A stretch of DNA of 64,000 nucleotides, from contig CAWFCE010000002.1 in assembly GCA_963814275.1 (NCBI GenBank), forward strand, positions 811,263 through 875,262, given 5' to 3'. Source of the DNA: Candidatus Parcubacteria bacterium (lineage in GTDB: Bacteria > Patescibacteriota > Patescibacteriia > Patescibacteriales > UBA12075). A program made the translations under genes and the position numbers. Each line of letters begins with the position of its first letter. The stretch's first letter is position 1. The notes under the pieces were generated by a model. That model worked only from the letters and a program-made list of their open reading frames with translations. It ran no database searches and was not told the origin of the DNA. Below are positions 870-31,918 of this stretch, piece by piece.

Positions 870-3092
870 ATGATGATTTCCAAAATGCGAATTTTAGCCC
901 ATTTATTTCTGGCGATTTTTTTGACACTCGGCTTATCCATTTCCCTCCAGTCCCTGCTCGCCGCCTGGACCCCTCCAAGTGCAGCCCCGCCAAACGGCAA
1001 TGTAACCGAGCCATTGTATACTGCCACGCTTTCAGACCCGGTAAATCAAACCAAGTATGGAATTTTGAATTTAATAGACGGATTCACGGTTGACACTAAT
1101 ACGCTTGTAGTAGATGCGACAGGTAATAAAGTCGGTATCGGTATGAATGATCCAAATGTTAAATTGACAATCGGGACCAAAGGCGGCAATGTTGCTAACG
1201 GGACCATTGCCAGTTTCTATAATGGGGATGAAACCACATTAAAAGTATTAGCGGTTGCCAATACGAACGGTACTGGTGCTCACATGCAGTTAATGGAAAA
1301 CAATCCTAACCTATACGGTTTTGACACCTGGTATGACACCGGAAACAATATGCTGTTAATAGATTCGTATGTAAATAATACTAAAACCAACATAATTGAT
1401 ATCACAACAGCCGGCAATGTCGGTATCGGTGCGGTTAATCCAAATGCCCGTTTAACAGTCAAAACAAATACCGCCTTTAATCAGTTCAGCCTGATTACCG
1501 AAGGTGTAATCGCTGGAGGCTGGGCCAGGGGGGCTGATATGCAGTATTACGAATCGGCCGCTCCAACAACTCTGCATCGCGGGTTCGCTTACGGTATGTA
1601 CGGTTCTGGCGATACATTGACCGGAACCTATTTTTCTTCCGTAAAAGATGATGCCGCCCCCTGGACTACGGCGCAATTATTTCTAAATAGTAATGGTAAT
1701 GTCGGAATAGGAACGAATGCGCCGGTAAATCAGCTTACCGTGTTAAATGACGGCTCGGATGCTATTACGATGGCTGTCGGAGGACCTTATCCGGCAGTAA
1801 GTGGAGTGAGCGGAACAAATTATTACAAACAATTAGAAATAAAAGAACCGGTATATAAAATACCCACTGGTTATACTGAAAATGGGTATCGTATCGGTTT
1901 GGCAGTGCAGGGATATGTTTCTACGAGTGATTTTGCGGGTACGTTAAAGGATCAGTATGGAGCATGGATAAGGACTGGGTCTAATTCAAATAATCCGACA
2001 GGTACTATAACAAATTCATATGGTGTATATATAGATAATTTAAGCTCCCCAAACGTAACTATCACAAAATCTTATGGTTTATACCAGTCTTCATCGGGAG
2101 CAATGAACTATTTTGCCGGCAACGTCGGCATCGGGACGAATGCGCCAGGAACAAAGTTGGATGTCGCGGGCGTTATACAGTCAAATGATATGGGGCGTTT
2201 CAAAGGCTGGACGGCGACCGGCGCAACCGGCCGGGCAGTTGAAGTGGGAATTTCCAGCGGTATTGGCTATGTTTATAATTATGATAGAACAGCCAGTACT
2301 TATGGTGAGCTGGATTTTAATAACGCCATCCGCATAGTAGGCAGTAATGGTAATATCGGAATTCATACTACTGCCCCGACCCTGCCAGTAGATATTCGGG
2401 GTTATACCAGGATTGACGGTTCTGCCAGTTATGATGTTTGGATACAGGGGGGTAGTAGTACCGCCGGCGGCGATGCCCGCAATTTAGCGATGTTAGGTAT
2501 AAAGGCAACTGATGTGCTTTCTATAAATCATTCTTCGGAATATGCCGGCGGAACGCAAATCGGTGGTCCTGTTAGCGTAGTCGGCAACCTTACCGTTTCC
2601 GGACAATATCTTGGTGGTTCCTGTGATGTGGCCGAACGCTACCAGGCGGTAGAGGAGGATTCCGAAATACTCGAACCGGGGGATATCGTCTCGTTATCAG
2701 CCGACAATGAACTGAAGATCGAAAAAGTCAGCGCTCCTCTCAGCAGTATGGCGATCGGCGTTTATTCCACTAAGCCGCAGATGGTGATGGGCGATACCGA
2801 TGAGGCCAAAGATCGCAATGACCCGCCGGTCGCCCTGATCGGCCGGGTGCCGGTCAAGGTGACGGACGAGAACGGGCCGGTCAAAGTGGGTGATCTGATC
2901 GTCAGTTCATCGAAGCCCGGCTACGGTATGGGTTGCCGATTGAAAGAGCTGGATTTATCCCTGCCCGAGGATGAGCGTTGGCAGATACTGGCCGACAACG
3001 AGAAATGCCGCAACGCCGCGATCGGCAAAGCGCTCGAGAATCTGGGGGCAGGCGAGGGAAGGATCGAAGTATTTTTAACCAAAGGAAATTAG
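870..3092 (+). CDS. Secreted fibre/beta-helix-like protein with GN[VI]GIG repeats and a conserved C-terminal domain
   Basis: Signal-like N-terminus (LFLAIFLTLGLSISLQSLLA). There are five copies of G-N-x-[VI]-G-I-G-x-x-x-P-x-x-x-L-[TD]-[VI] (GNKVGIGMNDPNVKLTI, GNVGIGAVNPNARLTV, GNVGIGTNAPVNQLTV, GNVGIGTNAPGTKLDV, GNIGIHTTAPTLPVDI). This motif is typical of tail-fibre-like proteins. The C-terminal module is CDVAERY...EPGDIV...PVALIGRVPVKV...VKVGDLIVSS. Confidence 0.75.
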   Translation: MMISKMRILAHLFLAIFLTLGLSISLQSLLAAWTPPSAAPPNGNVTEPLYTATLSDPVNQTKYGILNLIDGFTVDTNTLVVDATGNKVGIGMNDPNVKLTIGTKGGNVANGTIASFYNGDETTLKVLAVANTNGTGAHMQLMENNPNLYGFDTWYDTGNNMLLIDSYVNNTKTNIIDITTAGNVGIGAVNPNARLTVKTNTAFNQFSLITEGVIAGGWARGADMQYYESAAPTTLHRGFAYGMYGSGDTLTGTYFSSVKDDAAPWTTAQLFLNSNGNVGIGTNAPVNQLTVLNDGSDAITMAVGGPYPAVSGVSGTNYYKQLEIKEPVYKIPTGYTENGYRIGLAVQGYVSTSDFAGTLKDQYGAWIRTGSNSNNPTGTITNSYGVYIDNLSSPNVTITKSYGLYQSSSGAMNYFAGNVGIGTNAPGTKLDVAGVIQSNDMGRFKGWTATGATGRAVEVGISSGIGYVYNYDRTASTYGELDFNNAIRIVGSNGNIGIHTTAPTLPVDIRGYTRIDGSASYDVWIQGGSSTAGGDARNLAMLGIKATDVLSINHSSEYAGGTQIGGPVSVVGNLTVSGQYLGGSCDVAERYQAVEEDSEILEPGDIVSLSADNELKIEKVSAPLSSMAIGVYSTKPQMVMGDTDEAKDRNDPPVALIGRVPVKVTDENGPVKVGDLIVSSSKPGYGMGCRLKELDLSLPEDERWQILADNEKCRNAAIGKALENLGAGEGRIEVFLTKGN

Positions 3093-3181
3093 CAGAGAAA
3101 TAATATTTAATAAAATTTACAATTCAGCTAAATATTAATGCTAGCGGTTATTTAGGTTGCAATATTTATTTACGGCCGATG

Positions 3182-3210
3182 TTGCCCGATAATAAATATT
3201 AATATATAAT
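3182..3210 (+). promoter_or_regulatory. Candidate sigma70-type promoter (TTGCCC-17 nt-TATAAT)
   Basis: TTGCCC lies at 3182-3187 and TATAAT at 3205-3210, with a 17-nt spacer. It sits 30 nt upstream of the 3240 start. The surrounding DNA is AT-rich, so a chance match is possible. Confidence 0.35.
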
Positions 3211-3239
3211 TCAAGATATAATACGTAATTATTGAGTTT

Positions 3240-3620
3240 ATGCCGACAAATAATAACAGTATAATAAATATCGATACTGGCTTATATCCTCTCGAAGCAG
3301 TAATTAGCGCTAGTTACGTTTTTCTGGATAGGGCGTATATTCTCCTGGATCAACCCAAAACCGGAGTCGTCAAAGTGTCTTTTAAACCCAAAAAGGGTGG
3401 TGCGGCAAAGCTAAAAGACGAATTCATGAATGAATTACTGTTCGCGGTTGAGCGTCTAAATGCCGCCAAAAGAAATAAAAGGATACGCGAATTTATCGTC
3501 GGCCGCGCCCTCTTCAGCTCAGTCAATTATAATGAGGCAAACGCCGGCCTTGAAGCTTTAAGCATGAGTGATAACGAGAAAGATCCACTGGGGATCGGTA
3601 CACCCTGGCAAGAAAAATAA
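3240..3620 (+). CDS. HxsD-like small protein (His-Xaa-Ser system accessory protein-like)
   Basis: 126 aa. The N-terminal 'IDTGLYPLEAVISASYVFLDRAYILLD' resembles, from memory, the Y-x-x-E-A-[VL]...Y-x-F-x-D pattern of HxsD (TIGR03976). It lies directly upstream of an HxsB-like SPASM protein. Not verified by HMM. Confidence 0.4.
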   Translation: MPTNNNSIINIDTGLYPLEAVISASYVFLDRAYILLDQPKTGVVKVSFKPKKGGAAKLKDEFMNELLFAVERLNAAKRNKRIREFIVGRALFSSVNYNEANAGLEALSMSDNEKDPLGIGTPWQEK

Positions 3621-3684
3621 TAAATGCCGGGAAATGTATTAAATAAACTAATATACCGAGGGCAGATTAACAGCAACCAGAGAT

Positions 3685-3888
3685 ATGCAAATGAAATTCA
3701 ATAAGAAAATTTATAATAAAAAAGCGCTTAAGCGGGCAATAACCGATTTTCGAGACTTTGCTACTTTTCAGCTTGAAACAAACGCAAACTATTATATAAT
3801 CAGAACGGCGGAAAAGATAAATACAAAAAATCAGGCGGAGTTAAGCGATGAATTCGGGAACTACGCGCTTGGTTTGTTGAAAAAATGA
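3685..3888 (+). CDS. Second, shorter HxsD-like small protein
   Basis: 67 aa. 'FNKKIYNKKALKRAITDFRDFATFQLE' shows the same pattern as the 3240 product. The stop overlaps the next start (ATGA at 3885-3888). Confidence 0.35.
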   Translation: MQMKFNKKIYNKKALKRAITDFRDFATFQLETNANYYIIRTAEKINTKNQAELSDEFGNYALGLLKK

Positions 3889-5324
3889 AAAAAATAAATC
3901 CAAAAATCAATGATAATCTGACCGCCATCGGATATAAAATGATCAATGGCCAGTATTTGCTGGTCAATTGGTGGGGGTATTACGTATATTTGACTCCCGA
4001 AGAATTCTCTTTTGTCCAGTCGAACCAGGAAGTGGATGATGACAAACTGCATGCCTATCTTTCCAGTAATTTTTTTCTGCGCCGCTGTATCAACACGTCA
4101 TTTTTGACGGATCGTTTTCGGATCAAAAAACGATACCTGCTCGAAGGGCCAACCAGGCACGATATCAAAATTAACCGGCGCAGAAATGACGGATACGTTT
4201 TGGATTGGAGCAGCTCCGACGATAGCAGCGATGCCAGCGAAGCGGTGATGAGTAAAACCACCGCCGACAAGGTATTGGACTCAGTCTTCGGGACTACGGC
4301 GAAAAGAATAAATATCAATCTCAAAGGCGGCGAGCCGTTGATCAATTTCGATTCGGTCGATTATATTATAAAAAGGATAAAAGCCAAGAAAAAAACCGTT
4401 AATAAGCAAGTTACCGTTACGATCCAGACTAACGGTGTACTCCTGGACAGGAAAACGCTTGATTATTTTTTGTCCGCGAAAATAACCATTAAATTGCCAT
4501 TAGCCGGACCGTCGGAAATTCATGACCCGTTATTTCCCAGCGTCAAAAATCACTATGCCCATATTACCGGATTATTGAAACATATAAAAGAAAAATATCC
4601 CAAATTGGCGTACGACAATAAAAGAGCGGTGGTGAATTTCCAACCGGTAGTGACCAAAGATTCGCTCAAACACGGACGCCGTATAGTTGATGAATATGCC
4701 AAACTGGGAATAAAGGAAATCACATTATCTCCCCTGGACCCCTATGGCCTAAATCCGCAAATATGGCGGTGTTATGGATATTCACTCGACAAATTTTTCG
4801 AATTTTACAAATCTGCGCTTGACCGTATAATCGAGCTAAATCTCGGCAAAAAAATAATAAAAGATAATTTTTCCTCGATATTTTTAACAAAAATACTTAC
4901 CGACCGGGACCCCGACCATCCGGAATGGCGTTCGCCGTGCGGCGCTGGTATCGGCCGCCTGAGTTACGATACAGATGGTTCCGTCTTTACCTGCGATGAG
5001 GGTATGGCATTGTCAAAAAAGGGTGATAATGTTTTCCGGCTGGGGAATGCGAATAAAAACGATTATGAAGATTTAGTTACACACCCCACGACCAGGGCGG
5101 TGTGTACTGCTTCATGCGTTGAAGCCTTGCCGGGTTGCGATAATTGTATATATCACCCTTATTGCGGAGTGTGTCCTGTATACAGTTATCACACCTCGGG
5201 TAACATCGTTTCCAACTTTTCGGAAAACGCCAGATGCAAATTAACAACCGGTATCCTGGATAATTTGTTTGTTAAATTGCAGGACAAAAAAACGAAACGC
5301 CTGTTTACGGAATGGGTTTGCTGA
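3885..5324 (+). CDS. HxsB-like SPASM-domain protein that lacks the radical-SAM CxxxCxxC triad (probable pseudo-rSAM)
   Basis: 479 aa. The GGEP strand (NLKGGEPLINFD) is retained. So is a full SPASM Cys set (SPCGAG...DGSVFTCDEG...CTASC...PGCDNCIYHPYCGVCP). At the position where the triad should sit (aa 95-108) the sequence reads KINRRRNDGYVLDW and has no Cys. Confidence 0.7.
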   Translation: MKKINPKINDNLTAIGYKMINGQYLLVNWWGYYVYLTPEEFSFVQSNQEVDDDKLHAYLSSNFFLRRCINTSFLTDRFRIKKRYLLEGPTRHDIKINRRRNDGYVLDWSSSDDSSDASEAVMSKTTADKVLDSVFGTTAKRININLKGGEPLINFDSVDYIIKRIKAKKKTVNKQVTVTIQTNGVLLDRKTLDYFLSAKITIKLPLAGPSEIHDPLFPSVKNHYAHITGLLKHIKEKYPKLAYDNKRAVVNFQPVVTKDSLKHGRRIVDEYAKLGIKEITLSPLDPYGLNPQIWRCYGYSLDKFFEFYKSALDRIIELNLGKKIIKDNFSSIFLTKILTDRDPDHPEWRSPCGAGIGRLSYDTDGSVFTCDEGMALSKKGDNVFRLGNANKNDYEDLVTHPTTRAVCTASCVEALPGCDNCIYHPYCGVCPVYSYHTSGNIVSNFSENARCKLTTGILDNLFVKLQDKKTKRLFTEWVC

Positions 5325-5358
5325 TATTTTAATTATTTTTAAATTTTTTCTATATCAT

Positions 5359-5598
5359 ATGGCCAAAAAGAAATCAAAGCTTACCCCAAAATATCCCAAT
5401 ATCAAAAGGGATATTAAAGATTTTTTACTGAACGAAGAAGGCAATATTACGAAAAAGGATATCGTTAAAATGGGTTTGGGCCTGATGGTGCTGGGCTTGG
5501 GTCTGAAATCGAATATCGATGCAAAAGCCGAAGCGCCCAACAACACGGTTTGCGACAGATGCAGTGCTCAGCTGGGTCAATGCCATCCCTGGTATTGA
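5359..5598 (+). CDS. Small membrane-anchored peptide with a 3-Cys C-terminal tail (candidate modified peptide)
   Basis: ATG at 5359 gives 79 aa: MAKKKSKL...KDFLLNEEGNITKKDIVKMGLGLMVLGLGLKSNIDAKAEAPNNTVCDRCSAQLGQCHPWY. The order is a basic N-terminus, one hydrophobic helix, then a CxxC...C tail. The longer track ORF starting at 5269 overlaps the preceding gene and was not used. Confidence 0.5.
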   Translation: MAKKKSKLTPKYPNIKRDIKDFLLNEEGNITKKDIVKMGLGLMVLGLGLKSNIDAKAEAPNNTVCDRCSAQLGQCHPWY

Positions 5599-5613
5599 TC
5601 GGTATACAATTAT

Positions 5614-6564
5614 ATGTCAATGTCATATTACGCTAAAATTACAATTTTTTTTCTGGGTTGCCTTGCCTTAGGTGTGGTAATAGGAACCATTGGCGGCGTT
5701 GCTTATCATTGGCACAAAATGAACCAAATTTCTGAAAATATACCCGTAGTCAATCCAAGCCCAACGCCATCGGATAATCTGTCCGCCTCCACGTCCGCTC
5801 AGAATAGCGAAATATCAGTATCAAGTACCACGACAATCGTTGAAAATTTTATACCGCTCACAATAGAAGAAAGGACAGCTTGTATTACCCACCTAAAAAA
5901 TTCCGATGAGAACGAGTTGGCCAACCAGGCGAAAAATATCAGGTATCCCCATGGGGCAGTGGCGGATGATGAGAGGGATCGGATAAATGCAGCACAAAAA
6001 TATTTGTTATTGTATTTTATGGGTAATTATAACTTCGAAAGAAAAGACGAGGATTACGAAAAAATAGTCGATTATATAAATAATATGGATAATATAACCG
6101 AGGATACGAGAAATGTGGAAATGACGGGTTTGACCCAGCTAGCCGATAGTCCCGCCACTTCTTTTACGATTGCCCTGGCAGACGCTGATTATAATTATAT
6201 ATGTCCCGATAAATTATCCGATTTATGCATAAACCGCACCAGAATTTCCGGAGCGCCGGTTTATGAGGAGTGGTGCCAAAACTTATGCGATGATATTACA
6301 GAATATCCGGTCGACACACAACGATACAAACAGGAAATTACGGAATTCACCGACTGGCAGAATGATAAAAATTATGCATATGGACAAAGTACTTGGCGGG
6401 CGGCAATGGCATATCGGCTGGAAGGCAGAGACAAAGCGGTTAGCGTATGCGACAATTTAAGAGAGAATGATGTTAAAAACATTTGTATCGGTGAAGTTGA
6501 TGATTATGATAAATTTAACCCCGAGATATCCTTCGATAAATTTGTCAACATCGTTTGCCAGTAA
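5614..6564 (+). CDS. Membrane-anchored hypothetical protein with a Cys-rich ectodomain
   Basis: 316-aa ORF with an N-terminal TM helix (ITIFFLGCLALGVVIGTIGGVAY), a Ser/Thr-rich linker and 9 Cys after the TM helix. No recognisable family. Confidence 0.6.
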   Translation: MSMSYYAKITIFFLGCLALGVVIGTIGGVAYHWHKMNQISENIPVVNPSPTPSDNLSASTSAQNSEISVSSTTTIVENFIPLTIEERTACITHLKNSDENELANQAKNIRYPHGAVADDERDRINAAQKYLLLYFMGNYNFERKDEDYEKIVDYINNMDNITEDTRNVEMTGLTQLADSPATSFTIALADADYNYICPDKLSDLCINRTRISGAPVYEEWCQNLCDDITEYPVDTQRYKQEITEFTDWQNDKNYAYGQSTWRAAMAYRLEGRDKAVSVCDNLRENDVKNICIGEVDDYDKFNPEISFDKFVNIVCQ

Positions 6565-6626
6565 TTGTGGCATTTTAATAATTAACCGGTAATAAGATAT
6601 TTTTTTAAAAATATCTTTTTTAGTAT

Positions 6627-7331
6627 ATGAAAGCCATTATTCTTGCCGCCGGGATCAGCCGCAGAATGAGACCGTTAACCGATGATATGCCGAAAAGTCT
6701 GCTTGAGGTCGGGGATGAAACGATCCTTAATAGGCAAATCAGGATATTGATGAATGTTTGCGAAAGTATCGTGGTTGTTGTCGGATATAAAAAGGAAAAA
6801 GTAATAAACATATTACCGGCCGGCGCAAAAGCCATAATTAATAATGCCTACAAGCATACCAACAGTATTTACTCGCTTTGGCTAGCCAGGAAAGAGTTTG
6901 GCGACGATCTGTTATTATTGAACAGTGATGTTATTTTCGATGAAAATTTGATAGGGGACTTAAAAGACACCAAAGATGGAATTTGTGTAGCCTTGTCAAC
7001 CGATTGGCAATATGATAAAGGTTATAAAGTCGAAGGGGATAATAAAAGAGTGAAAAGAATGGGCATGGAGATGTCGAAGGAAAAAATTTTGGGAGAATAT
7101 GCCGGCATCATCAAGATAAAAAAGGAGAAAGTACCGGTATTGACGGAATATTTAAAAATAATGCTTAATGAGTCCGAAGAATACTGGTTTGAAGATGTTT
7201 TTTCCCGTATGGCAGGGGATAGAGTTGATATCGGGTTTTTCGATGTCAAAAAATATTTATGGTTTGAAGTCGACACGGTCGAAGAATATTTGGCCGCAGG
7301 AAAAGCAATTGCTTCCCTCGAAACAAGATAA
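6627..7331 (+). CDS. Nucleotidyltransferase (LicC/sugar- or phosphoalcohol-phosphate cytidylyl/nucleotidyl-transferase family)
   Basis: The N-terminus MKAIILAAGISRRMRPLTDDMPKSLLEV is the G-x-G-x-R-[ML] NTP-transferase signature. The 234-aa single-domain size fits. Confidence 0.75.
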   Translation: MKAIILAAGISRRMRPLTDDMPKSLLEVGDETILNRQIRILMNVCESIVVVVGYKKEKVINILPAGAKAIINNAYKHTNSIYSLWLARKEFGDDLLLLNSDVIFDENLIGDLKDTKDGICVALSTDWQYDKGYKVEGDNKRVKRMGMEMSKEKILGEYAGIIKIKKEKVPVLTEYLKIMLNESEEYWFEDVFSRMAGDRVDIGFFDVKKYLWFEVDTVEEYLAAGKAIASLETR

Positions 7332-7368: not shown

Positions 7369-7737
7369 TTGCTGGTTTTCCTCCGACAAATAGTGACCAA
7401 ATACGACGTCAGGAGATGCGTACCGCCGGTCGGTATCAACGTCACCGCCTTTTGCATGTGCGGTATCCCCGGGGAAACCGTTTCCGATATGTATGCTACA
7501 TATGATTTTAAAGTCCGCTGCGGCTTTGACAGTGCGTCATTTTTTGCCGCCACCCCGATGATCGGTTCGGAATTATTGGAAATTTGCCGCAAAAATAATT
7601 ATTTGAATAAAAATTATAGCAAGGTGCGTAATTTCTTGAAATTAGGCAATATCACCACCACCGAATTCAAATCTGCCGAAGTCGAGTCGTTGGTCAAAAA
7701 GTTCTACAGACAATACAAAAAAACGATAAAAGGATAA
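7369..7737 (+). pseudogene. C-terminal stub of a B12-binding-type (class B) radical SAM enzyme
   Basis: FCMCGIPGETVSDMYATYDF...DSASFFAATPMIGSEL matches the '[FL]-x-x-G-x-PGET...F-x-x-TP-x-PG[ST]' C-terminal half of class B rSAMs. No B12 domain or Cys triad lies upstream, because the NTP-transferase gene ends at 7331. Confidence 0.55.
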
Positions 7738-10074: not shown

Positions 10075-11655
10075 ATGGAAATGAAATTGGTTTTTTTCCT
10101 GCCATTTTATAACATTCCGCAGCATGACCTCGTTTCGTGGCTGCCGCTATCCGCACCCAATCTGATCGGCAACATTAAAAAAGATTTTCCCACAGTCGGT
10201 TTTTCGGTTATCGAACTGCACAAACTTTTTAAAGAGGTATTTACCGGCCGGGAAATGGAAAATTTACGTAAAGATCTGTATAGATTCTTCAAAACCAATC
10301 CAACGGCCAAAGACCTGGAATTTTATGAGAAATATTTCAAACAGATCGATAAAATCCTGGATCTGGGGCAATATGATCATTTCCTTTTTTCCCATTATTG
10401 CGCCTGGATAATCGGCATTAAAGCGAATATGCTTTTTGCCAGGTATTTGAAAAATAAATATCCTGACAAAAAAATAATTTTTGGCGGAGTTTACGGCTTC
10501 GGCAAGAATTACGACAAATGTTCTTTTGAGGAATTTGGTTATATCGATGCTACTGTAGTCGGCTATGGTGAAAATTCCGCCAAAGAAATATTGCGTAGTT
10601 TGCTGGCCGGTAAAAAACTGAAAAAACTTTATTGCACTTATACTCCGCCGCACGAAGTGATAGAGAATTTGCCGGATTATCATTCCATCATAGATTTGGA
10701 TAAATCCAGATATAATGCCGCTCAACTTGAGAAATTATATAATATCGAGCTGCCCCGCAGCCGTAGCAGGGAAAGGGTATTGTTTATTCCTTATAAATTC
10801 AATATCGGGTGCAATTGGCAGAATTGCGCATATTGCCGGCAGTCCTATGGCATCAATTTCAAGCCAAGACCGGCATATTACACCAAGGACCATCAGACAA
10901 TAATTTCCGAATTGAAATATTTGAAAAAAACATATAAATCGGATTATTTCATATTCAAAAGCAATAATTTCAATATCAGCCTCGGGTGGTGTAAAAAATT
11001 ACTTAGCCGGATGATCGATGAAAAGCTGGATATACTTTGGTCCGATTCATTCAACCTGAGCGTAATTGACGATGAACTGCTGGAGATGTTGGCGGCAGCG
11101 GGATGCTTTCGCATGGACCTGGGAGTGACTACCCTGAACCCAAATCTTCAAAAAATGTACAATAATCGTTTGCAGGACAATGGATTGCTGGAAAATCTCA
11201 AAAAAATATCTTCACATGGGATTTGGACACATATCAATTTGATAGTTAATCTGCCCTTCCAGTATTCGATTGATGGTGAAATAGAAACTCTGAAAAAATA
11301 TATCGCTTACATTGACGGTGTAGCTATAAATAATTACCGCCGCACGCCTGATACGGATATCAGCATCAATTACAAAAAATATAAAATAGACAAAATACAT
11401 GTCGAATTCAAAGAAAATAATAAGCGGTATTATTTGTATTATATCGAAAATGAATTCAAGGGCGGACTGGAACTGAGAAAAAAGATGTTCGCCGCCAATC
11501 ATTTTAAAATGATAAATTTTTTCAAAGATCAGGGGCTCATCAATACAGCTGATTATGCACATTTGTATTTATTGGGGTATTTATACAAGCAATTCGGTTT
11601 TAAGGAAAAAACAAAGATCAAGAGGATTATTACTGAAGCTAAGCCTAAATATTGA
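10075..11655 (+). CDS. B12-binding-domain (class B-like) radical SAM enzyme with a Cx4Cx2C cluster motif
   Basis: The N-terminal Rossmann-like segment (KKIIFGGVYGF...IDATVVGYGENSAKEIL) resembles a cobalamin-binding domain. The cluster motif IGCNWQNCAYC has Cys246/251/254, encoded at nt 10810-10836. Confidence 0.65.
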   Translation: MEMKLVFFLPFYNIPQHDLVSWLPLSAPNLIGNIKKDFPTVGFSVIELHKLFKEVFTGREMENLRKDLYRFFKTNPTAKDLEFYEKYFKQIDKILDLGQYDHFLFSHYCAWIIGIKANMLFARYLKNKYPDKKIIFGGVYGFGKNYDKCSFEEFGYIDATVVGYGENSAKEILRSLLAGKKLKKLYCTYTPPHEVIENLPDYHSIIDLDKSRYNAAQLEKLYNIELPRSRSRERVLFIPYKFNIGCNWQNCAYCRQSYGINFKPRPAYYTKDHQTIISELKYLKKTYKSDYFIFKSNNFNISLGWCKKLLSRMIDEKLDILWSDSFNLSVIDDELLEMLAAAGCFRMDLGVTTLNPNLQKMYNNRLQDNGLLENLKKISSHGIWTHINLIVNLPFQYSIDGEIETLKKYIAYIDGVAINNYRRTPDTDISINYKKYKIDKIHVEFKENNKRYYLYYIENEFKGGLELRKKMFAANHFKMINFFKDQGLINTADYAHLYLLGYLYKQFGFKEKTKIKRIITEAKPKY

Positions 11656-11679
11656 TATGAAACATCCGGTATATATAAT

Positions 11680-12789
11680 ATGAATAATTCTCAACAAAAA
11701 AGATTGGAAAAATATACCCGGTTAAGGATTCAAACGATAGACGACGGGATCATAAGGTCGGGTCCGGATTTTGTTCGGATCGGGGTATGCCAGAAATGCA
11801 ATTTCGATTGTGTGATGTGTTGGCACCATTCGTCGTTTTTCGAAAACAACCGGGAAAATAGGGGCAAAACCGAATTATTGGATGAGAACATAATTTTCGA
11901 CACGATTAACGAAGCGGAAAAAATGGGGACGCGGGGGATTTTATTTTCCGGGTCCGGCGAGCCATTCCTGCATCCGAAGATGATGGATTTTTTAAAAGTC
12001 GCCAAAGGAAAGGGTTTTCGGGTAAGAGTGCAAACAAACCTCTCCTTGGTCAGCGATCCGTCACTTTTGGCCAAATTAAAAGTCGATGTTATTGCGGTCA
12101 ATTTATGTGCGGCGACAGCCGATACATACGTCAAGATCCATCCCAACCAGAAAAAAAGCGGTTTCAAAAGAACGCTTGCAAAAATGGAAGAGTTAATTGC
12201 CTGCTCAGATCCGGAAATAGAGATAAGAATGACGAATATAATTTCCAGATTGAACTATAATGAGATATGTGAAATGTTCAAGCTCGGTTATGACATGAAC
12301 GCAAGTTTGCACTTGGAATTAGCCGATTATTCTCCGGTGCTAAAAGACAAAATCGGATTGGATGAAATACAAAAAAAGGAAATTATCAGGCAGTTGGACT
12401 CTCTCGACGAAAAATATTTACTCTACAAGAAAACCAATTTGCCAGATTTTCGGGAACAGTTGGCGCATTCGGGAATCGGGTTAGTAAAATTCAAATCCTG
12501 CCTGATGGGCCATCTGTATGCCTTTGTAAACGAATATGGTAACGTTTATTTTTGTAATTACGGCGGGAATGAATATTTGATGGGCAATTTATATGAAAAT
12601 ACTTTATCGGAAATTTGGAATTCCCGTAAATATGAGGAATTGAGGGACAGGTTGTTTAAAGGAGTCGATGTATTGCCGGCATGTCAAAAATGCTTAAATG
12701 AGCGGGGTTGGAATTTCAAAACGCGATTTTTCGTGGACCCGGATATGGCGAAGTCCGTATTGAATGACGTCCTGGAAAGCATAAAATAG
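11680..12789 (+). CDS. Radical SAM protein with a C-terminal SPASM/twitch-like Cys motifs
   Basis: The triad is CQKCNFDCVMC and the SAM strand is FSGSGEPFLHP. The C-terminus has SCLMG...NVYFCNYGG...LPACQKCLN. Confidence 0.8.
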   Translation: MNNSQQKRLEKYTRLRIQTIDDGIIRSGPDFVRIGVCQKCNFDCVMCWHHSSFFENNRENRGKTELLDENIIFDTINEAEKMGTRGILFSGSGEPFLHPKMMDFLKVAKGKGFRVRVQTNLSLVSDPSLLAKLKVDVIAVNLCAATADTYVKIHPNQKKSGFKRTLAKMEELIACSDPEIEIRMTNIISRLNYNEICEMFKLGYDMNASLHLELADYSPVLKDKIGLDEIQKKEIIRQLDSLDEKYLLYKKTNLPDFREQLAHSGIGLVKFKSCLMGHLYAFVNEYGNVYFCNYGGNEYLMGNLYENTLSEIWNSRKYEELRDRLFKGVDVLPACQKCLNERGWNFKTRFFVDPDMAKSVLNDVLESIK

Positions 12790-12792
12790 ATT

Positions 12793-13917
12793 ATGATTTA
12801 TAGAAAATACGGAAAAACCAACAAAAAAATTTCGATATTGGGCCTGGGAGGGTCGAGATTCAGGATCGACGCGGGCGAAAGGAATTTCGATCGATCATTA
12901 AAATTGGTGAGAAAGGCATTCGAATCGGGAATAAATTTTTTCGATACCTCGCCGCATTATTGCCATGGCAGAAGCGAAGAAATATTCGGCGAAGCATTGT
13001 CGGGTATAAAAGGGAAATACTATATTTCCACCAAAAGCCGGGTTATAGAGGATCCGGATGCCGATTCGGTAAGAAGAAGAATAGAAAGCTCACTCAAAAG
13101 ATTGAAAAAGGAAAAAATCGATTTTTACGATATGTGGGCCGTATCGTCAATGGCGGAATTCCGAATGATTATGAAGAAAAAGGGTCCTTATGAGGGGGCG
13201 CTAAAAGCGAAAGATGAGGGGCTGGTCGACCATATTACATTTTCCAGCCGGCTGCCGGATAAAGAAATAATCGAAATGATCAAAAGCGGATATTTCGACG
13301 GTGTGACCCTGAGTTATAACATTATGAATTATCCGTCCAGCGAGAACGCGGTCAAGGAGGCCGCCCGGGCGGGGATGGGGGTCGCGATAATGAATCCGTT
13401 GAGCGGAGGAATCATACCCGGACATCCCGAGCGTTTCACTTTTTTACAGGGGAAAAATAGCGAGAGTATCGCCCAGGCTGCGTTGCATTTTGTCATGGCC
13501 ACTCCCGGTGTCACTACCGCTATTTGCGGTACGGGATCATTGGTGAATTTGGAAAGAAATATTGCCGCCGGCGGGAATAGAGGGATTTTGTCCGCCGGGA
13601 AACTTAAGGATTTAAAAAATAAAATCGATCACGGTCTTTTCGATATGTGCAACAGTTGTAACCGTTGCCTGGCGAGTTGTTCTCGCGGCATTCATATCCC
13701 CCTGCATATGGATATCTATAATTTGAAAATCATGAAGGAGGAGGATGAGGTCGTGGGGAAATATTTGTCAGACAAGAAGAAACATGCGCTTTACAGCAGT
13801 TATAAGCCAGGAACGAATTGCAACGGCTGCAGGGAATGCGAAAAAAAATGTCCGAAAAAATTGAATATATACGATAGATTAAGATATTTAAATGAATATA
13901 TAACAACGGACAAATGA
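12793..13917 (+). CDS. Aldo/keto reductase fused to a C-terminal 2x[4Fe-4S]-type ferredoxin motif
   Basis: The AKR N-terminus is YRKYGKTNKKISILGLGGSRF...GINFFDTSPHY. The C-terminal Cys motifs are CNSCNRCLASC and CNGCRECEKKCP. Confidence 0.75.
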   Translation: MIYRKYGKTNKKISILGLGGSRFRIDAGERNFDRSLKLVRKAFESGINFFDTSPHYCHGRSEEIFGEALSGIKGKYYISTKSRVIEDPDADSVRRRIESSLKRLKKEKIDFYDMWAVSSMAEFRMIMKKKGPYEGALKAKDEGLVDHITFSSRLPDKEIIEMIKSGYFDGVTLSYNIMNYPSSENAVKEAARAGMGVAIMNPLSGGIIPGHPERFTFLQGKNSESIAQAALHFVMATPGVTTAICGTGSLVNLERNIAAGGNRGILSAGKLKDLKNKIDHGLFDMCNSCNRCLASCSRGIHIPLHMDIYNLKIMKEEDEVVGKYLSDKKKHALYSSYKPGTNCNGCRECEKKCPKKLNIYDRLRYLNEYITTDK

Positions 13918-14843
13918 ACAGCAGAAAAGAAACTTACAATTTTACGCTTCCTAGCGGCATAGAGATCGAGCCTACTAATTTGTGCGATTTAAAATGCCCG
14001 TTATGTCCGAGCGGCAACGGGAAAATAGATGAGTGGCGCCTTCCCAGAGGCATGATGAATCTGCGGCAATTCAAAGATATTATCGATCAGGTGAAAAATT
14101 TCGTCAAATATATCGTATTGTGGGGCTTAGGGGAGCCAACCCTGGTTCCCGATTTGGATTTGATGATAGATTACGCCGCCGGCAATAAGATATCCGTTAT
14201 TACGAGTATCCACGGCAACCATGATAAAAAGTTGAACCGTAAATTGATGGAAGCCGAACCGTATAAGATAATCTTCGCGATAGACGGTTTAAGCCAGGAA
14301 ACTTACGGAATATACCGCCAGGGCGGGAATTTCGAGAAAGCTCTCAGTAATCTCAAAGATTGCGTTAACATCAAAAAAGAAACCGGCCAAAAATATCCGC
14401 TAATATATTGGCAGTTTATAGTTATGAAACACAACGAAAAAGAAATATCCGATCTGAAAAAAATGGCGGAAAAAATCGGGGTAGACGGCCTAATGCTGAA
14501 AAAATACGCATCGACCAGGGAAGATAAATTCAGGCCGGAGAACCCGGAATATATCAGGCACGAACCGGAAGAAGAGAAATATAAATGTAAGTTCTTGTTC
14601 GATAGACCGATGATATTCTTTAACGGTGATGTCAGTGCATGCAGCCATGATTTCAGGATGAAGCATATTATGGGAAATATTTTTAAGGAGCCATTCGCGG
14701 ATATATGGAACAATGATCGGTTCAGGAAATTCAGACATTCATATTTTGACAATTCCCTGTTCGAATGCCAAGGCTGCCGCGCAAGGTCTTATGCCGATCA
14801 TTTTATCGAATATACTTTTCCCGGAAAGAGGCGTAAAGGATAG
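13914..14843 (+). CDS. Radical SAM protein (SPASM/twitch-like C-terminus)
   Basis: The triad is NLCDLKCPLCPSG. LWGLGEPTL serves as the SAM strand. The C-terminus has FFNGDVSACSHD...FECQGCRA. The start overlaps the previous stop (ATGA). Confidence 0.8.
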   Translation: MNSRKETYNFTLPSGIEIEPTNLCDLKCPLCPSGNGKIDEWRLPRGMMNLRQFKDIIDQVKNFVKYIVLWGLGEPTLVPDLDLMIDYAAGNKISVITSIHGNHDKKLNRKLMEAEPYKIIFAIDGLSQETYGIYRQGGNFEKALSNLKDCVNIKKETGQKYPLIYWQFIVMKHNEKEISDLKKMAEKIGVDGLMLKKYASTREDKFRPENPEYIRHEPEEEKYKCKFLFDRPMIFFNGDVSACSHDFRMKHIMGNIFKEPFADIWNNDRFRKFRHSYFDNSLFECQGCRARSYADHFIEYTFPGKRRKG

Positions 14844-14897
14844 AATCTATTTGTATGCATTATCCAGCTATCAATTATTTCACACTTTACAATTAAT

Positions 14898-15974
14898 ATG
14901 AAAATCGAAAGGTTAAAATATTTGGAAAATATTTGGCGGCCGAAACCGGGTAAAAACGAAATGACACCGCGCCTGGGGAAACTGCGACTGGATTTTAACG
15001 AAAACCTGGATATGGAATTGGCCGGATTCTTATATAAAAAAATTTCAGCGGAGATAACCTCGGCGCATTTCGGCCTGTATCCCGATATCGAGCAATTGTA
15101 TTTTGGGATCGCCCGAAAATATGATTTAGCGATCGATCGAATATATTTATCAGCCGGTTCAGATGCTTCGATTCGCTCGGTATTCAATGTCTTTGTCGGC
15201 CGGAACGATAAAATTATTTTGCCAAATCCGACATTTTCCATGTATGAAGTCTATTGCCGGATCTTTCAGGCGCGTTGCCTTAAGATCGATTATGGTCGGG
15301 ATTTCATGTTACCGCTCGATAAATTATTCAAGGCGATCAAGGACGACGCTACCCTGCTGGTATTGCCGAATCCGGACAGTCCGTCGGGCAGCGTCATCGA
15401 CAGTGAAAAATTGGAGGAACTCGTGGATTATGCGGATAAATGTAACGTCATTACGTTGATAGATGAGGCATATTTTCCTTTTTACGGGAAAACAACCGTG
15501 AAGTGGGTGGACAAATTCGATAACTTGATCGTAATCAGATCATTTTCCAAAGCTTTTGGCTTGGCCGGTTTTCGGGTGGGTTATGCAGTCAGTAATCCGG
15601 CGATTATCAATCTGTTGCAGGCCCAAAAGCCGATGTGTGAGGTAAGCACCTTCGGTGTGATTGCGGCCGGTGTCGCCCTCGAATATGATAACCAGGTTAC
15701 CAAATCCGTACGGAGAATATATGCCGCCAAGAAATATTTTGTCAATGAATTGAAAAATCTCGGCTTCAAAGTAATTCCGGGGAATGCCAACTTCATTAAT
15801 GTCGATTTTGGCCGGCATACTGCCATGATTATGGACAAATTACGCAAGAATAATATTATCATCCACGAACCGCCGGAGAATAATCTATTGGGTGAATTTC
15901 AAAGGATTAGCATCGCCACCAAAGATATAATGGAGAGCGTAATCGCAGTCTTAAAAGGAAATAATAATAAGTAA
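14898..15974 (+). CDS. Class I/II PLP aminotransferase (HisC/CobD-like)
   Basis: LPNPDSPSGSV corresponds to the N-P-x-N-P-T-G region. RSFSKAFGLAGFRVGY carries the PLP-lysine motif S-x-S-K-x-x-G-x-x-G-x-R-x-G. Confidence 0.8.
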   Translation: MKIERLKYLENIWRPKPGKNEMTPRLGKLRLDFNENLDMELAGFLYKKISAEITSAHFGLYPDIEQLYFGIARKYDLAIDRIYLSAGSDASIRSVFNVFVGRNDKIILPNPTFSMYEVYCRIFQARCLKIDYGRDFMLPLDKLFKAIKDDATLLVLPNPDSPSGSVIDSEKLEELVDYADKCNVITLIDEAYFPFYGKTTVKWVDKFDNLIVIRSFSKAFGLAGFRVGYAVSNPAIINLLQAQKPMCEVSTFGVIAAGVALEYDNQVTKSVRRIYAAKKYFVNELKNLGFKVIPGNANFINVDFGRHTAMIMDKLRKNNIIIHEPPENNLLGEFQRISIATKDIMESVIAVLKGNNNK

Positions 15975-15984
15975 TTATAATCGA

Positions 15985-17451
15985 ATGAACGGTCGTATGG
16001 CAACAAAAACTGGAAAAAAGATCGTTAAAATTCACGATATTACCGATTTCGAAAAATTCATTCATAACAGGGAGCTAGCGCTCAAGGCTGAAAGCGATAT
16101 TGAAATCTGTGCGAATCCGGAAATATTTTCAAGCATATATAATATTCTGAATATGTTATGGGCAAAAAATGTCCGAAAAGTCGATTTGGTTTTTACCGAA
16201 GAACTAATCAGGAAATCCGGTATAAAAAAGTTGGCTGCCAGATTTTCCGGCCTACGCTATTACTTTCTGGATAAATTGATATTGAGGGCGGCGAATATAC
16301 CATATTGCCTGATCAAACAGCCGGAGGGAGTAATATTTTGGCAGGGGAAAAAGGGAGAATTCGTTAAATTTAATCTTTGCCGGATATGCAAGTACCGCCA
16401 GTTCTGCCGCGGTGTGCACAGATCGATTTCCGATATCCATATCAGGGAAATTTTGCGAACTGTTCCTGATCGGCCCCGGGAAGTGATGATTGAGATTGAA
16501 GAAAAATGTAATTTGAATTGCGAATTCTGTTTTAACAAAAATAGTTTTGCCAAACGCGGCAGAAATGTCGAAAACAAACTTAGTACATCAATTGTTAAAA
16601 ATATAATAGACAGCATAGCGGACGCCGATATCGGAACCGTCAGGTTTACGGGAGGAGAGCCGTTACTCAGGAGCGATATTTGGGAGCTGGCGGAATTTGG
16701 CAAGAAAAGAAACCTGGAAGTCCGGCTGAATACGAACGGCATACTGATAAAAGATTACGCAACAGCCGAAAAAATCGCCGTTAATTTCGATAACATTTTA
16801 ATACCGATTCAGTATTCGGATATATCGATGGGGAATAATGCCGCGAAAATTAAACTTAAGGGGATTAAACTGCTCAAAAAAGCGGGTGCCAAGACAATCC
16901 GTATCGGCACGGTCGCCACTAATGAAGTTATAGATAATTTAACCCAAGTCCACGCCTTCGTCAAAAAACTACCAATCGATAAATGGGAATTATACCGGAC
17001 GATCGCTGCCCCCGGCCGCCATACCGGATATACCAGATCCCGGGTGGCAACGCTGGTTGAAGGGCTGATAAAGATCAAAAACGAAACCGGAGTTGTCCAT
17101 TATATAATAAATGCCATCCCTTTTTGTAGTTATAATCCATTAAAAATGCGGCAGGTCGCCGCCGGCGCCAATGCCGTAGACGGGCACGAAAGGTTCGTTA
17201 TCGATCCGCGCGGATTTGCGAAACCGATATATTATATGGACAGGAATATCGGCGAACCGGGTGATATTATGGGCGCCTGGAACCACCAATTCATGAAAAA
17301 AATGAGAACCCTGAAGTTTGTTCCGAAAGAATGCAAGGATTGCGTTTTTATTGAAAAATGCCGTGGTGGTTGTCGGTTTTCCGCCTATTCCGAAAACGGA
17401 AATTTTTCCGCGCCGGATCCTCTGATGGATGCCCGTAATATTATCAAGTGA
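15985..17451 (+). CDS. Radical SAM/SPASM protein with a ~160-aa N-terminal extension
   Basis: The triad is EEKCNLNCEFCFN and the SAM strand is RFTGGEPLLR. The SPASM end is PFCSYNP...CKDCVFIEKCRGGCRFSAY. An extra CRICKYRQFC motif sits before the core. Confidence 0.8.
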   Translation: MNGRMATKTGKKIVKIHDITDFEKFIHNRELALKAESDIEICANPEIFSSIYNILNMLWAKNVRKVDLVFTEELIRKSGIKKLAARFSGLRYYFLDKLILRAANIPYCLIKQPEGVIFWQGKKGEFVKFNLCRICKYRQFCRGVHRSISDIHIREILRTVPDRPREVMIEIEEKCNLNCEFCFNKNSFAKRGRNVENKLSTSIVKNIIDSIADADIGTVRFTGGEPLLRSDIWELAEFGKKRNLEVRLNTNGILIKDYATAEKIAVNFDNILIPIQYSDISMGNNAAKIKLKGIKLLKKAGAKTIRIGTVATNEVIDNLTQVHAFVKKLPIDKWELYRTIAAPGRHTGYTRSRVATLVEGLIKIKNETGVVHYIINAIPFCSYNPLKMRQVAAGANAVDGHERFVIDPRGFAKPIYYMDRNIGEPGDIMGAWNHQFMKKMRTLKFVPKECKDCVFIEKCRGGCRFSAYSENGNFSAPDPLMDARNIIK

Positions 17452-17461
17452 TTATAATCGT

Positions 17462-18061
17462 ATGGATATTATCAGGATCGAGGGTGAAAAAAGCTTTTAT
17501 TATGCGGCCAGACGAGCCGTAATAATCTTGAAAAAAGGAGGTATAGTCGTCCATCCAACTGACGCTTGCTACGGAATAGCCGCTGACATCACGAATGAAA
17601 AGGCGGTAAAAAAGGTATTTGCGCTCAAAAGGAGGGAACTAGACCATCCGGTAAATATTATCGTTAAAGACAGGGAGGATTTTTCGAAATTTGGCCGGTG
17701 GTCCCCGTTGATCGATGATTTGACGAAAAAGCAACGGAAAAGAATGTACAGTTTTGTCGTCAAAAAAACCGATCACTGCCCGGGTTTTTTAAATCCGAAT
17801 TTCGAAACTGTCGGTATTCAGATTCCCAAAAATCCGTTTTCACTCGAGATTTTGGGGTTAATAAAAGTGCCGTTGATAGCGACCAGTGCGAATATTTCCG
17901 GGAAAAATAACGTATATAAAGTCGAATCGATCTTGAATCAGATTAAAGATGCGGAAATCAACCCGGATTTGATTATTGACGGAGGAGCATTGCCTTACCG
18001 CAAGGTGTCACGGGTGATCGAAATCATTGGCCATGATAAATATCGAATTGTAAGAAATTAG
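17462..18061 (+). CDS. tsaC: YrdC/Sua5-family L-threonylcarbamoyladenylate synthase-like protein
   Basis: ATG at 17462. The core is VVHPTDACYGIAADITNEKAVKKVFALKRRELDHPVNIIV...IATSANISG, the YrdC-domain signature. Confidence 0.7.
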   Translation: MDIIRIEGEKSFYYAARRAVIILKKGGIVVHPTDACYGIAADITNEKAVKKVFALKRRELDHPVNIIVKDREDFSKFGRWSPLIDDLTKKQRKRMYSFVVKKTDHCPGFLNPNFETVGIQIPKNPFSLEILGLIKVPLIATSANISGKNNVYKVESILNQIKDAEINPDLIIDGGALPYRKVSRVIEIIGHDKYRIVRN

Positions 18062-18064
18062 AAT

Positions 18065-20906: not shown

Positions 20907-20942
20907 AGATTGTCCGGTATATAACATTTATCTGGAAATAAA

Positions 20943-22028: not shown

Positions 22029-22049
22029 ATAATCATCAAGCCAGCATAT

Positions 22050-22346
22050 ATGGCAAATGGAGCCGTTAAAAAAATAAAAAATACCGTAAAAACGGAAAAA
22101 CCGCTCTCTTTTTTGTATGATTATGATGCCGCTTACGAAAGCCTCAAAGCTTTTGTAGACTTTTATGATATGTATAGTTCCAGTGGCCCGCAGGAGTTAC
22201 ATGTCAGCTATCCGGTTCGACCAACCCGCATTACGTTTCCCAATATAGAAGCTGGCGCCTATCTGGCATTTATTTTTATGTTAGAGTTGGCGAAGAGAGA
22301 CGCACGCAAGAACGGTATTATTATTCATGATAAACCATATGACTGA
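22050..22346 (+). CDS. Hypothetical 98-aa protein between two paralogous rSAM genes
   Basis: The ORF is tightly packed: 21 nt after the previous stop, and it overlaps the next start. No recognisable motif. Confidence 0.45.
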   Translation: MANGAVKKIKNTVKTEKPLSFLYDYDAAYESLKAFVDFYDMYSSSGPQELHVSYPVRPTRITFPNIEAGAYLAFIFMLELAKRDARKNGIIIHDKPYD

Positions 22347-26773: not shown

Positions 26774-26774
26774 C

Positions 26775-27989: not shown

Positions 27990-28018
27990 CAGTTTAATCT
28001 GCGTAAATCACTTATCCG

Positions 28019-30542: not shown

Positions 30543-30615
30543 ATACCATGCCCAATGATTATTCCATCGCATAATTGTTAGAAAAAGCGATTCCATTAAT
30601 TGCTGCCGCGTATTC

Positions 30616-30741
30616 ATGCGCATAATTCGTAAATTCAGAAAAGAATTCAAAAAAGGCGTTAATACGGCTTGTAACGAAATGTGTCCGGGAAAGATTAAGA
30701 AAATTATGTATGCCGAAGAACTTAATCTAAAAAAATTTTAA
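30616..30741 (+). CDS. Possible 41-aa small ORF in the only large gap of the rSAM array
   Basis: ATG at 30616 to TAA at 30739-30741 gives MRIIRKFRKEFKKGVNTACNEMCPGKIKKIMYAEELNLKKF (2 Cys). There is no clear SD, it is below the ORF-track cutoff, and it could be a chance ORF. Confidence 0.2.
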   Translation: MRIIRKFRKEFKKGVNTACNEMCPGKIKKIMYAEELNLKKF

Positions 30742-30750
30742 ACCAAAATA

Positions 30751-31905: not shown

Positions 31906-31918
31906 ATAAAGCGTATCA

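Follow-up and report, generated by a model that had tools for sequence, protein, structure and literature searches.

What can a protein still do when it has the fold of a radical S-adenosylmethionine (SAM) enzyme and no cysteine triad to hold the SAM-cleaving [4Fe-4S] cluster? The question is raised by a gene of a Candidatus Parcubacteria bacterium (GenBank assembly GCA_963814275.1, contig CAWFCE010000002.1, positions 811,263 to 875,262 of the forward strand; this whole stretch of 64,000 nucleotides is the window below, and coordinates refer to it). A preliminary description of the window had called the gene product, here P0001, a SPASM-domain "radical SAM" protein. That assignment can be refined to a homolog of HxsB, encoded in a cassette of the HxsA3 type, in which SAM-binding residues beyond the triad have also decayed. 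Although built on an HxsB scaffold, P0001 has neither the triad nor the ribose motif of a functional radical SAM enzyme; it scores below the HxsB equivalog cutoff, and the precursor beside it has no His-x-Ser (HxS) unit. Our preferred reading, with a probability of roughly 0.6, is that P0001 is an HxsB-derived pseudo-radical-SAM protein that serves as a SAM-independent, leader-binding Fe-S subunit inside its own cassette. P-numbers denote homologous proteins and peptides, and L-numbers denote the loci or contigs compared.

The HxsB homolog and its SAM-binding residues

The gene and the parts of it discussed in this section are as follows.

3885..5324, forward strand: triad-less HxsB homolog, 479 aa (TIGR03978 match, AlphaFold2 model, Foldseek)
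4161..4208, forward strand: degenerate cluster-binding loop, aa 93 to 108 (DIKINRRRNDGYVLDW), with C100R, C104Y, Y106L, and C107D by alignment
4326..4337, forward strand: retained GGE(P) motif, aa 148 to 151; of the conserved residues beside it, E145 is now N and Q147 is now K
4497..4535, forward strand: degenerate ribose motif region, aa 205 to 217, with S-L-D-G-P...H...R changed to P-L-A-G-P...H...F
4932..5237, forward strand: SPASM cysteine region, aa 350 to 451, with nine cysteines (352, 370, 407, 411, 418, 421, 427, 430, 451)

The open reading frame (ORF) is a single uninterrupted frame whose ATG start overlaps the stop codon of the preceding gene (ATGA). Besides the nine SPASM cysteines, P0001 has cysteines at positions 68, 296, and 479; residues 69 to 295 contain none, and C68 is, as previously stated, the only one upstream of the loop. 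In alignments of P0001 with eleven and then with 235 homologs, the canonical HxsB loop T-L-R-C-N-x-x-C-x-Y-C-H-A-S pairs without gaps with N-R-R-R-N-D-G-Y-V-L-D-W-S-S, so that R100, Y104, L106, and D107 occupy the places defined by the radical SAM motif CX3CXphiC. These four columns are 99 to 100% conserved across 230 triad-bearing homologs. The preliminary description had numbered the loop as aa 95 to 108; the nucleotides that it gave (4161 to 4208) encode aa 93 to 108, and its statement that the loop is free of cysteine stands. It had also called the triad replaced, which is right as to the loss, complete in a full-length ORF, and needs amending as to the manner: the residues were substituted in place, and no foreign sequence is present.

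A hidden triad or a frameshift was considered and rejected on three-frame translation of 4050..4350. That region has no ambiguous bases (N), and its other two frames contain no CxxxCxxC and are full of stops. L002, from Logan's separate assembly of run ERR11571143, encodes an identical protein, and the earlier view that no frameshift or assembly artifact is involved holds up. Nor is a triad supplied by another segment of the protein or by the HxsD or HxsD-like neighbors, both of which lack cysteine. As had been proposed, P0001 is predicted to be incapable of canonical binding of the SAM-cleaving cluster. Opposite the degenerate loop lies a 96-aa ORF (4055..4345, reverse strand) that shadows the HxsB gene and lacks gene support, and a promoter and terminator scan of 3000..7000 gave a result no better than that for shuffled sequence.

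P0001 matches the NCBIfam family TIGR03978 (HxsB, the His-Xaa-Ser system radical SAM maturase) essentially end to end (profile positions 10 to 466 of 466) with 323.7 bits, and the next-best family reaches 93 bits. The curated equivalog cutoff of 370 bits is missed by P0001 and by its triad-less relatives P0002 (309.5 bits) and P0246 (150.6 bits); a canonical HxsB at L007 scores 477.3 bits. All 120 homologs listed are HxsB-like, and those with names come mostly from Patescibacteria groups, Omnitrophota, Schekmanbacteria, Elusimicrobiota, and DPANN archaea. An AlphaFold2 model built with 130 homologs has a mean predicted local distance difference test (pLDDT) score of 92.5, with low confidence in the degenerate loop (aa 100 to 120; pLDDT of 64 to 74 over aa 93 to 108), in a stretch near residue 245, and in the first few residues. 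The model comprises an N-terminal domain resembling the RiPP (peptide made by ribosomes and modified after translation) recognition element (RRE; aa 1 to 88, three strands and three helices), a degenerate radical SAM half-barrel (aa 89 to 340), and a SPASM domain (aa 341 to 479). The partial TIM-barrel fold is recovered both in the model and by Foldseek, and Pfam PF04055 scores 28.7 bits, slightly below its cutoff of 29.5. Foldseek against the PDB placed CteB (5WGG, E = 1e-20), anSME, TigE, ChlB, and SuiB on top and also found PqqE. CteB, a sactipeptide thioether synthase, has the same RRE-radical SAM-SPASM order at 18% identity. Structure prediction and alignment to HxsB and anSME, both proposed earlier as checks, thus recovered a radical SAM/SPASM fold and bore out the triad loss and the HxsB homology.

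The decay extends beyond the triad. P0001 retains G148-G149-E150-P151, which had been described as the SAM-ribose strand; the tetrad is indeed present, but it is the GGE motif, and the true ribose motif (Ser205, Arg217) is lost. For these motif roles we relied on work on SkfB, in which Ser211 is the ribose-motif serine and Arg223, 12 residues on, positions the SAM carboxylate and ribose (PMC6231123). Columns S205 and R217 of P0001 correspond to this pair with the same 12-residue spacing, and a profile alignment equates S205, D207, and R217 with S122, D124, and R134 of anSME. All three are substituted in P0001 (S205P, D207A, R217F). Since the ribose-motif Ser and the SAM-positioning Arg are lost, SAM binding itself has probably gone from P0001, the retained GGEP notwithstanding. 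Retention was scored over 72 columns at least 85% conserved among the 230 triad-bearing HxsB proteins. P0001 keeps 61% and P0002 51% of the 41 core columns (canonical mean, 94%; minimum, 66%), with E145, Q147, S205, D207, R217, and R282 among the residues lost in P0001. Of the 28 SPASM columns, P0001 keeps 89% and P0002 86% (canonical mean, 93%; minimum, 57%).

The SPASM region, by comparison, is complete, as the preliminary description had said. Its cysteines follow the pattern C352-x12-G365-x4-C370, C407, C411, C418-x2-C421-x5-C427-x2-C430, C451, which agrees with the seven-cysteine SPASM motif CX9-15GX4C-gap-CX2CX5CX3C-gap-C except that the last spacing is x2 and not x3, as in all HxsB. The cysteines align with those of CteB and anSME, and none of the nine varies among P0001, P0002, and P0246. 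The Pfam SPASM model scores below threshold on P0001 (13.5 versus 21.5 bits); with TIGR04085, P0002 scores 33.1, above the cutoff of 27, and P0246 26.8, slightly below it.

Cassette, precursor peptide, and triad-less relatives

P0001 is encoded in a cassette that runs HxsD, HxsD-like protein, HxsB homolog, HxsA3-type precursor, 316-aa protein.

3240..3620, forward strand: HxsD, 126 aa, no cysteine, first gene of the cassette (TIGR03976, 47.1 bits; cutoff, 50)
3685..3888, forward strand: HxsD-like small protein, 67 aa, no cysteine (NF038315 HxsD_rel, 69.6 bits; cutoff, 41)
5359..5598, forward strand: HxsA3-type precursor, 79 aa; Lys-rich leader, then hydrophobic stretch, then core without HxS
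5551..5595, forward strand: C-terminal core motif of the precursor, CDRCSAQLGQCHPWY (C-x2-C-x6-C-H-P-W-Y), of the same type as in L006/L095 and P0270
5614..6564, forward strand: 316-aa protein encoded by the fifth cassette gene; hydrophobic segment at the N terminus, Cys-rich body

The HxsD gene carries a precomputed PF27806:HxsD match on L002, and HxsD occupies the same position in L001, L003, L005, L006, L013, L014, and L095. The HxsD-like gene, whose stop codon overlaps the start of the HxsB homolog, has a counterpart of 66 to 67 aa at the same place in L001, L003, L005, L006, L013, and L095 and one of 78 aa in L014. Triad-bearing P0003 (L003) and P0011 (L005) lie in an identical five-gene order, and the cassettes of triad-bearing P0004 (L013) and P0121 (L014) begin in the same way. 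P0001 is thus close to the HxsB of HxsA3-type cassettes from candidate-phyla bacteria, Omnitrophota, and DPANN archaea: approximately 35 to 44% identity over the full length, the same three-domain fold, identical SPASM cysteines, and the same neighbors in the same order, with a fifth gene of 311 to 332 aa. Unlike canonical HxsB, it is without CxxxCxxC, Tyr106, and the Ser, Asp, and Arg of the ribose motif, scores below the family cutoff, and is accompanied by a precursor without His-x-Ser.

Upstream of the cassette, a 740-aa protein (870..3092) is homologous over its N-terminal ~290 residues to a 970-aa Peptidase_S74-containing protein at 2257..5169 of L003. The first ~50 residues are closely similar to those of the L003 counterpart (including ...SLLAAW.PP.A.PP), and the protein has repeated G(N/K)VGIGT motifs, which suggests that a surface fiber-like gene is syntenic with Hxs cassettes. 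Because of this shared upstream gene, the window cassette looks like a positional ortholog of the canonical L003 cassette. Descent in situ seems indicated for the window member, which has homologous flanking genes in common with L003.

The precursor peptide has changed together with the enzyme, a loss of His-x-Ser that the preliminary description had missed. In canonical HxsA3 precursors, a Lys-rich leader and a hydrophobic stretch are followed by a long H-x-S run that mostly ends in W/Y. The window precursor, whose ATG start is supported by gene callers (L002 2687..2926), sits beside HxsD and HxsD-like genes and matches NF038309 (HxsA3) at profile positions 1 to 46 of 81 only, that is, over the leader; its core has 0 HxS units. 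We collected 80 additional HxsB loci from Joint Genome Institute (JGI) metagenomes, finding leaders by hidden Markov model (HMM) and HxsB genes by the family HMM, and counted 40 distinct complete precursors adjoining full-length HxsB. The 38 beside triad-bearing HxsB have 1 to 54 HxS units each; the 2 that adjoin a triad-less one lack HxS, contain three cysteines, and end in CxxC-x5-6-CHP(W)Y. Where the window has CDRCSAQLGQCHPWY, the counterpart in L006/L095 is CTKCGPPTPCHPY, and P0270, a third peptide of the type on a 631-bp contig, has CSRCYDIPGDPVECYPWY. The longer cores end in ...VCDRCSAQLGQCHPWY (window), ...ICTKCGPPTPCHPY (L006/L095), and ...ICSRCYDIPGDPVECYPWY (P0270), giving a new C-terminal consensus of CxxC-x5-9-C-[HY]-P-(W)-Y. 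The precursor of the triad-bearing sister P0121 is rich in cysteine, has one HTS ahead of the final Y, and looks like an intermediate state. After its leader, the window precursor has ~12 hydrophobic residues and an A-K-A-E-A segment with an A-x-A-like site; leader and site resemble an export signal and suggest that the mature product may be a small exported peptide. Among the other loci, the precursors of L035, L052, and L089 extend beyond their HxS repeats and, after a CCPF/SCPF motif, have a conserved ~350-aa domain at the C terminus, a layout by which HxS arrays may be N-terminal modules of much larger proteins.

Related genomes share the loss, which had been proposed as a check. Among the 120 best homologs, the triad is absent only in P0001 and its top match, P0002 (42 to 44% identity). 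An exhaustive profile search of 1.84 billion representatives scored P0001 at 979 and P0002 at 932 bits, followed by a drop to 453. Further full-length triad-less HxsB-like proteins among the 150 matches listed are P0246, P0156, P0192, and P0210; P0246 and P0271, which is 99% identical to it and occurs on at least 10 JGI contigs, have 33% identity to P0001. P0001 and P0002 have the derived states S205P, Q358R, and R374M in common. In P0002 ten loop residues are deleted and GGEP has become GPEP; in P0246 no GGEP is left and much of the core is missing. The four-gene order, with genes overlapping or closely spaced, is kept at L001 (P0002), L006 (P0246), and L095 to L097 (P0271). A neighbor-joining tree groups P0001, P0002, and P0246 beside triad-bearing P0003, P0004, and P0121 and places P0156/P0192 and P0210 elsewhere; this scatter shows that the family has lost the triad more than once.

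The divergence is unevenly distributed over the protein. P0001 and P0002 are 54% identical in the N-domain, 34% in the core, and 55% in the SPASM domain, and the values for canonical sister pairs are 37 to 46%, 55 to 64%, and 60 to 77%, respectively. This is the pattern that would be expected of a catalytic core freed from constraint while peptide and cluster binding are kept. Diverged lineages that keep their frames, gene order, and nine SPASM cysteines support the earlier argument that an intact full-length ORF speaks against simple decay; judged by sequence, the P0001 lineage is a conserved pseudo-enzyme, which recent decay does not fit.

Several candidates did not survive inspection. L027, L033, L061, and L071 were rejected as triad-less, since they have an intact CNxxCxYC and the screen had picked up chance GGEP-like strings in the stop-to-stop extension upstream; P0131, P0132, P0181, P0190, and P0203 were set aside as N-terminally truncated, probably fragments or products of miscalled starts. 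The fifth cassette gene was likewise rejected as part of the triad-less module. The 316-aa protein matches no Pfam or NCBIfam family; BLASTP relates it to 7834..8832 of L003 (E = 1e-21) and 7859..8794 of L005 (E = 3e-09), but it does not match the 379-aa gene that follows the L095 cassette, and the fifth gene is absent from L006 and L095. Since the L095 gene is unrelated, the conserved triad-less module consists of four genes.

At two of the loci the surroundings deserve mention. In L095, an AbiEi/AbiEii pair (4871..6156) lies ~2.3 kb downstream of the precursor, past the unrelated 379-aa gene, which hints at a defense-island context for the cassette of the P0271 lineage. In L007 (1234..5372; an Elusimicrobiota metagenome-assembled genome, GCA_016206405.1), the gene for the independently triad-less P0156, with its loop deleted and GGEP kept, immediately precedes those for a canonical HxsB (477 bits) and an HxsC4-like radical SAM protein, an arrangement that looks like a tandem pseudo-enzyme/enzyme pair.

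The best-characterized relative is the HXS anti-phage system of Gammaproteobacteria, with the genes HxsD-HxsB-HxsC-HxsA and an HxsC-HxsD core complex (Li et al., Nat Commun 2026, PMC13128918). Both systems have homologous HxsB and HxsD, and N-terminal precursor processing and export, demonstrated there, can be surmised here from the leader and hydrophobic stretch. The window cassette differs in having an additional HxsD-like gene and no HxsC, which is also absent from related HxsA3-type cassettes; no HxsB-HxsC pair is found at the cassette within the 64-kb window. Unlike the anti-phage HxsA, the 79-aa precursor has no peptidoglycan-binding domain or HxS repeats, nor any Pfam domain. Since it has neither HxsC nor an HxsA-type effector, the window cassette is not an HXS anti-phage system. 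Active-site substitutions abolish the function of Escherichia coli HxsB (PMC13128918); in P0001, this active site is naturally absent.

Role of the protein and rival explanations

The ancestor of P0001 is shown by these comparisons to be a canonical HxsB in an HxsD/HxsD-like/HxsB/HxsA3 cassette. One lineage has lost the three cluster cysteines, the neighboring Tyr, and the ribose-motif Ser with its Arg partner; the half-barrel core afterwards evolved faster than the rest of the protein, with the RRE-like domain and all SPASM cysteines remaining constrained; and the partner precursor lost every His-x-Ser unit and acquired a Cys-type C terminus. P0001 would then neither bind nor cleave SAM and would yield no 5'-deoxyadenosyl radical, but may still carry two auxiliary [4Fe-4S] clusters and bind the leader peptide jointly with the two HxsD-type proteins. 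From there it might escort the Cys-containing peptide to processing or cleavage and export, or its SPASM clusters might act on the peptide cysteines without radical chemistry. The second option has a precedent in CteB, where a substrate Cys binds the open auxiliary cluster I (Aux I) site (PMC6231123). Unlike P0001, CteB has an intact radical SAM cluster and performs radical chemistry, and in contrast to its open Aux I site, the nine SPASM-region cysteines of HxsB suffice for full ligation of both clusters. We entertain, as a tentative and on present evidence rather unlikely elaboration, that the RRE-plus-SPASM module has turned into a SAM-independent maturase or metallochaperone whose clusters act directly on the CxxC-x5-9-C-[HY]-P-(W)-Y peptide, for instance by thiol oxidation or ligation or by metal or cluster loading at a Cys3-His/Tyr site before export. 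Of the three roles suggested earlier (pseudo-enzyme scaffold, peptide chaperone, electron-transfer partner of nearby radical SAM enzymes), a peptide chaperone or pseudo-enzyme inside its own cassette fits best. The electron-transfer role is disfavored by L095, whose triad-less cassette has no radical SAM gene within ~6 kb, the nearest being a B12-type radical SAM gene beside a nonribosomal peptide synthetase.

The same observation bears on the main rival, that P0001 is a noncatalytic scaffold or substrate presenter for an intact radical SAM enzyme encoded elsewhere, with radical chemistry supplied in trans by one of the ~15 downstream radical SAM genes of the window or by a second HxsB or HxsC elsewhere in the genome. 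Fourteen radical SAM genes with canonical CxxxCxxC at 11.7 to 37 kb make candidates easy to name, the canonical cassettes L004 and L005 also sit among radical SAM genes, and the L007 pair has the look of such a partnership. Set against this, in addition to L095, the window genes begin ~3.5 kb past the cassette after unrelated genes and are mixed with glycosyltransferases, not peptide genes; tblastn with P0003 gave only distant radical SAM proteins and no second HxsB in the window; and the precursor is without HxS units, the presumed radical targets. We therefore judge radical chemistry in trans unlikely. It is very unlikely that the cassette is a decaying relic whose HxsB gene is a functionless, undisrupted pseudogene. 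The fast-evolving core, the deleted loop and GPEP of P0002, the missing GGEP of P0246, and the slightly subcutoff scores of the window HxsB and HxsD might be read in that way, but three lineages at 33 to 44% identity keep full-length frames and the same four-gene order, the nine SPASM cysteines do not vary, the N-domain is more alike between P0001 and P0002 than between canonical sister pairs, P0271 recurs on its many contigs, and the precursors have a common new C-terminal motif rather than random sequence.

Hardly to be expected is radical SAM chemistry at a noncanonical cluster site, ligated by other residues or by the three cysteines (CxxC...C) of the bound precursor. It is attractive in that GGEP persists in P0001, in that the precursor has gained exactly three cysteines where the enzyme lost three, and in that a substrate Cys ligates Aux I of CteB (PMC6231123). 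Yet Ser205, Arg217, Tyr106, E145, and Q147 went along with the cysteines, the residues now at the triad positions (R, Y, D) offer no cluster-ligating replacement, and P0002 without the loop and P0246 without GGEP and much of the core keep the same cassette (P0246 also the same peptide type). Finally, that a normal triad is hidden by an error of sequencing or assembly is a negligible prospect, given the codon-for-codon loop alignment, the closed alternative frames, the second assembly, and the same loss in independent relatives from other samples.

With the pseudo-radical-SAM reading preferred, certain points weigh against it. The role is inferred, the two auxiliary [4Fe-4S] clusters are predicted from sequence, and the retained GGEP may leave room for residual SAM or nucleotide binding. 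The grouping of P0246 with P0001 and P0002 rests on long branches, and P0001 is overall as similar to triad-bearing P0003 (44%) as to P0002 (44%). The covariation of precursor and enzyme is suggestive and statistically not strong, because the cases probably trace to one evolutionary event; it draws on two distinct precursors with a known enzyme and one (P0270) without, and in L001 the precursor sequence breaks off ahead of the core. The search for a second HxsB or HxsC covered 64 kb of a 1.27-Mb contig.

A precedent by database name only for SPASM proteins that outlive their radical SAM site is TIGR04347 ("pseudo-SAM/SPASM protein"). It is a different family from P0001: it is not among the best 25 of the 50 families matched by P0001 and is matched only weakly, by other radical SAM proteins of the window. 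A literature search found no description of a triad-less HxsB or a Cys-type HxsA3 peptide, and one on pseudo- or inactive radical SAM/SPASM proteins returned nothing useful.

Surroundings of the cassette and meaning for the HxsB family

Downstream of the cassette lies an unusually radical SAM-dense, glycan-type cluster (10075..37356), in which ~15 radical SAM genes in 27 kb, 14 of them with canonical CxxxCxxC, are interleaved with genes for glycosyltransferases, a glutamine amidotransferase-domain protein, and an aminotransferase; a TsaC-like gene (17429..18061) and a TsaD-like gene (37350..38603) also fall in this region. A 526-aa B12-binding-type radical SAM-like protein (10075..11655) has CNWQNCAYC (Cx4Cx2C) where the canonical spacing would be Cx3Cx2C, and two radical SAM proteins (25493..26773 and 33253..34473) have their SPASM/twitch-type Cys domain at the N terminus (Pfam SPASM at aa 14 to 75 and aa 5 to 70), the reverse of the usual order. 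Closer to the cassette, a 122-aa ORF with a TTG start (7369..7737) has a GIPGET-type stretch and no Pfam match at E = 1e-6; it has the look of a leftover C-terminal part of a B12-type radical SAM protein. Between 40000 and 50500 the G+C content rises from ~0.36 to 0.44 up to 0.49 to 0.60, and two very large proteins are encoded there, one with MopE-type metal-binding repeats (44285..47215) and one with a He_PIG Ig-like domain (47308..50445); this segment may be foreign DNA or a set of compositionally distinct surface-protein genes. PADLOC matched no specific defense model and returned only weak viperin (generic radical SAM) matches, and Rfam gave neither rRNA nor any other RNA.

Annotation pipelines would call genes such as that of P0001 "radical SAM protein" or "SPASM domain-containing protein," and RiPP genome mining would consequently expect a radical modification where there probably is none. 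The radical apparatus is gone exactly where the HxS units are gone, which points to the HxS units as the target of the HxsB radical, and P0121 with its Cys-rich, single-HxS precursor offers a testable intermediate. To our knowledge, the role of SPASM auxiliary clusters is debated, and the clusters have always been studied alongside an active radical site. P0001, in which the radical site has been naturally removed while the clusters and the peptide-binding domain are under selection, would be a clean system for their stand-alone roles. If the maturase or metallochaperone proposal were true, it would represent a peptide-maturation chemistry derived from radical SAM enzymology and no longer using it, and would show SPASM acting alone. 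A conserved "dead" HxsB appears to have found a new use.

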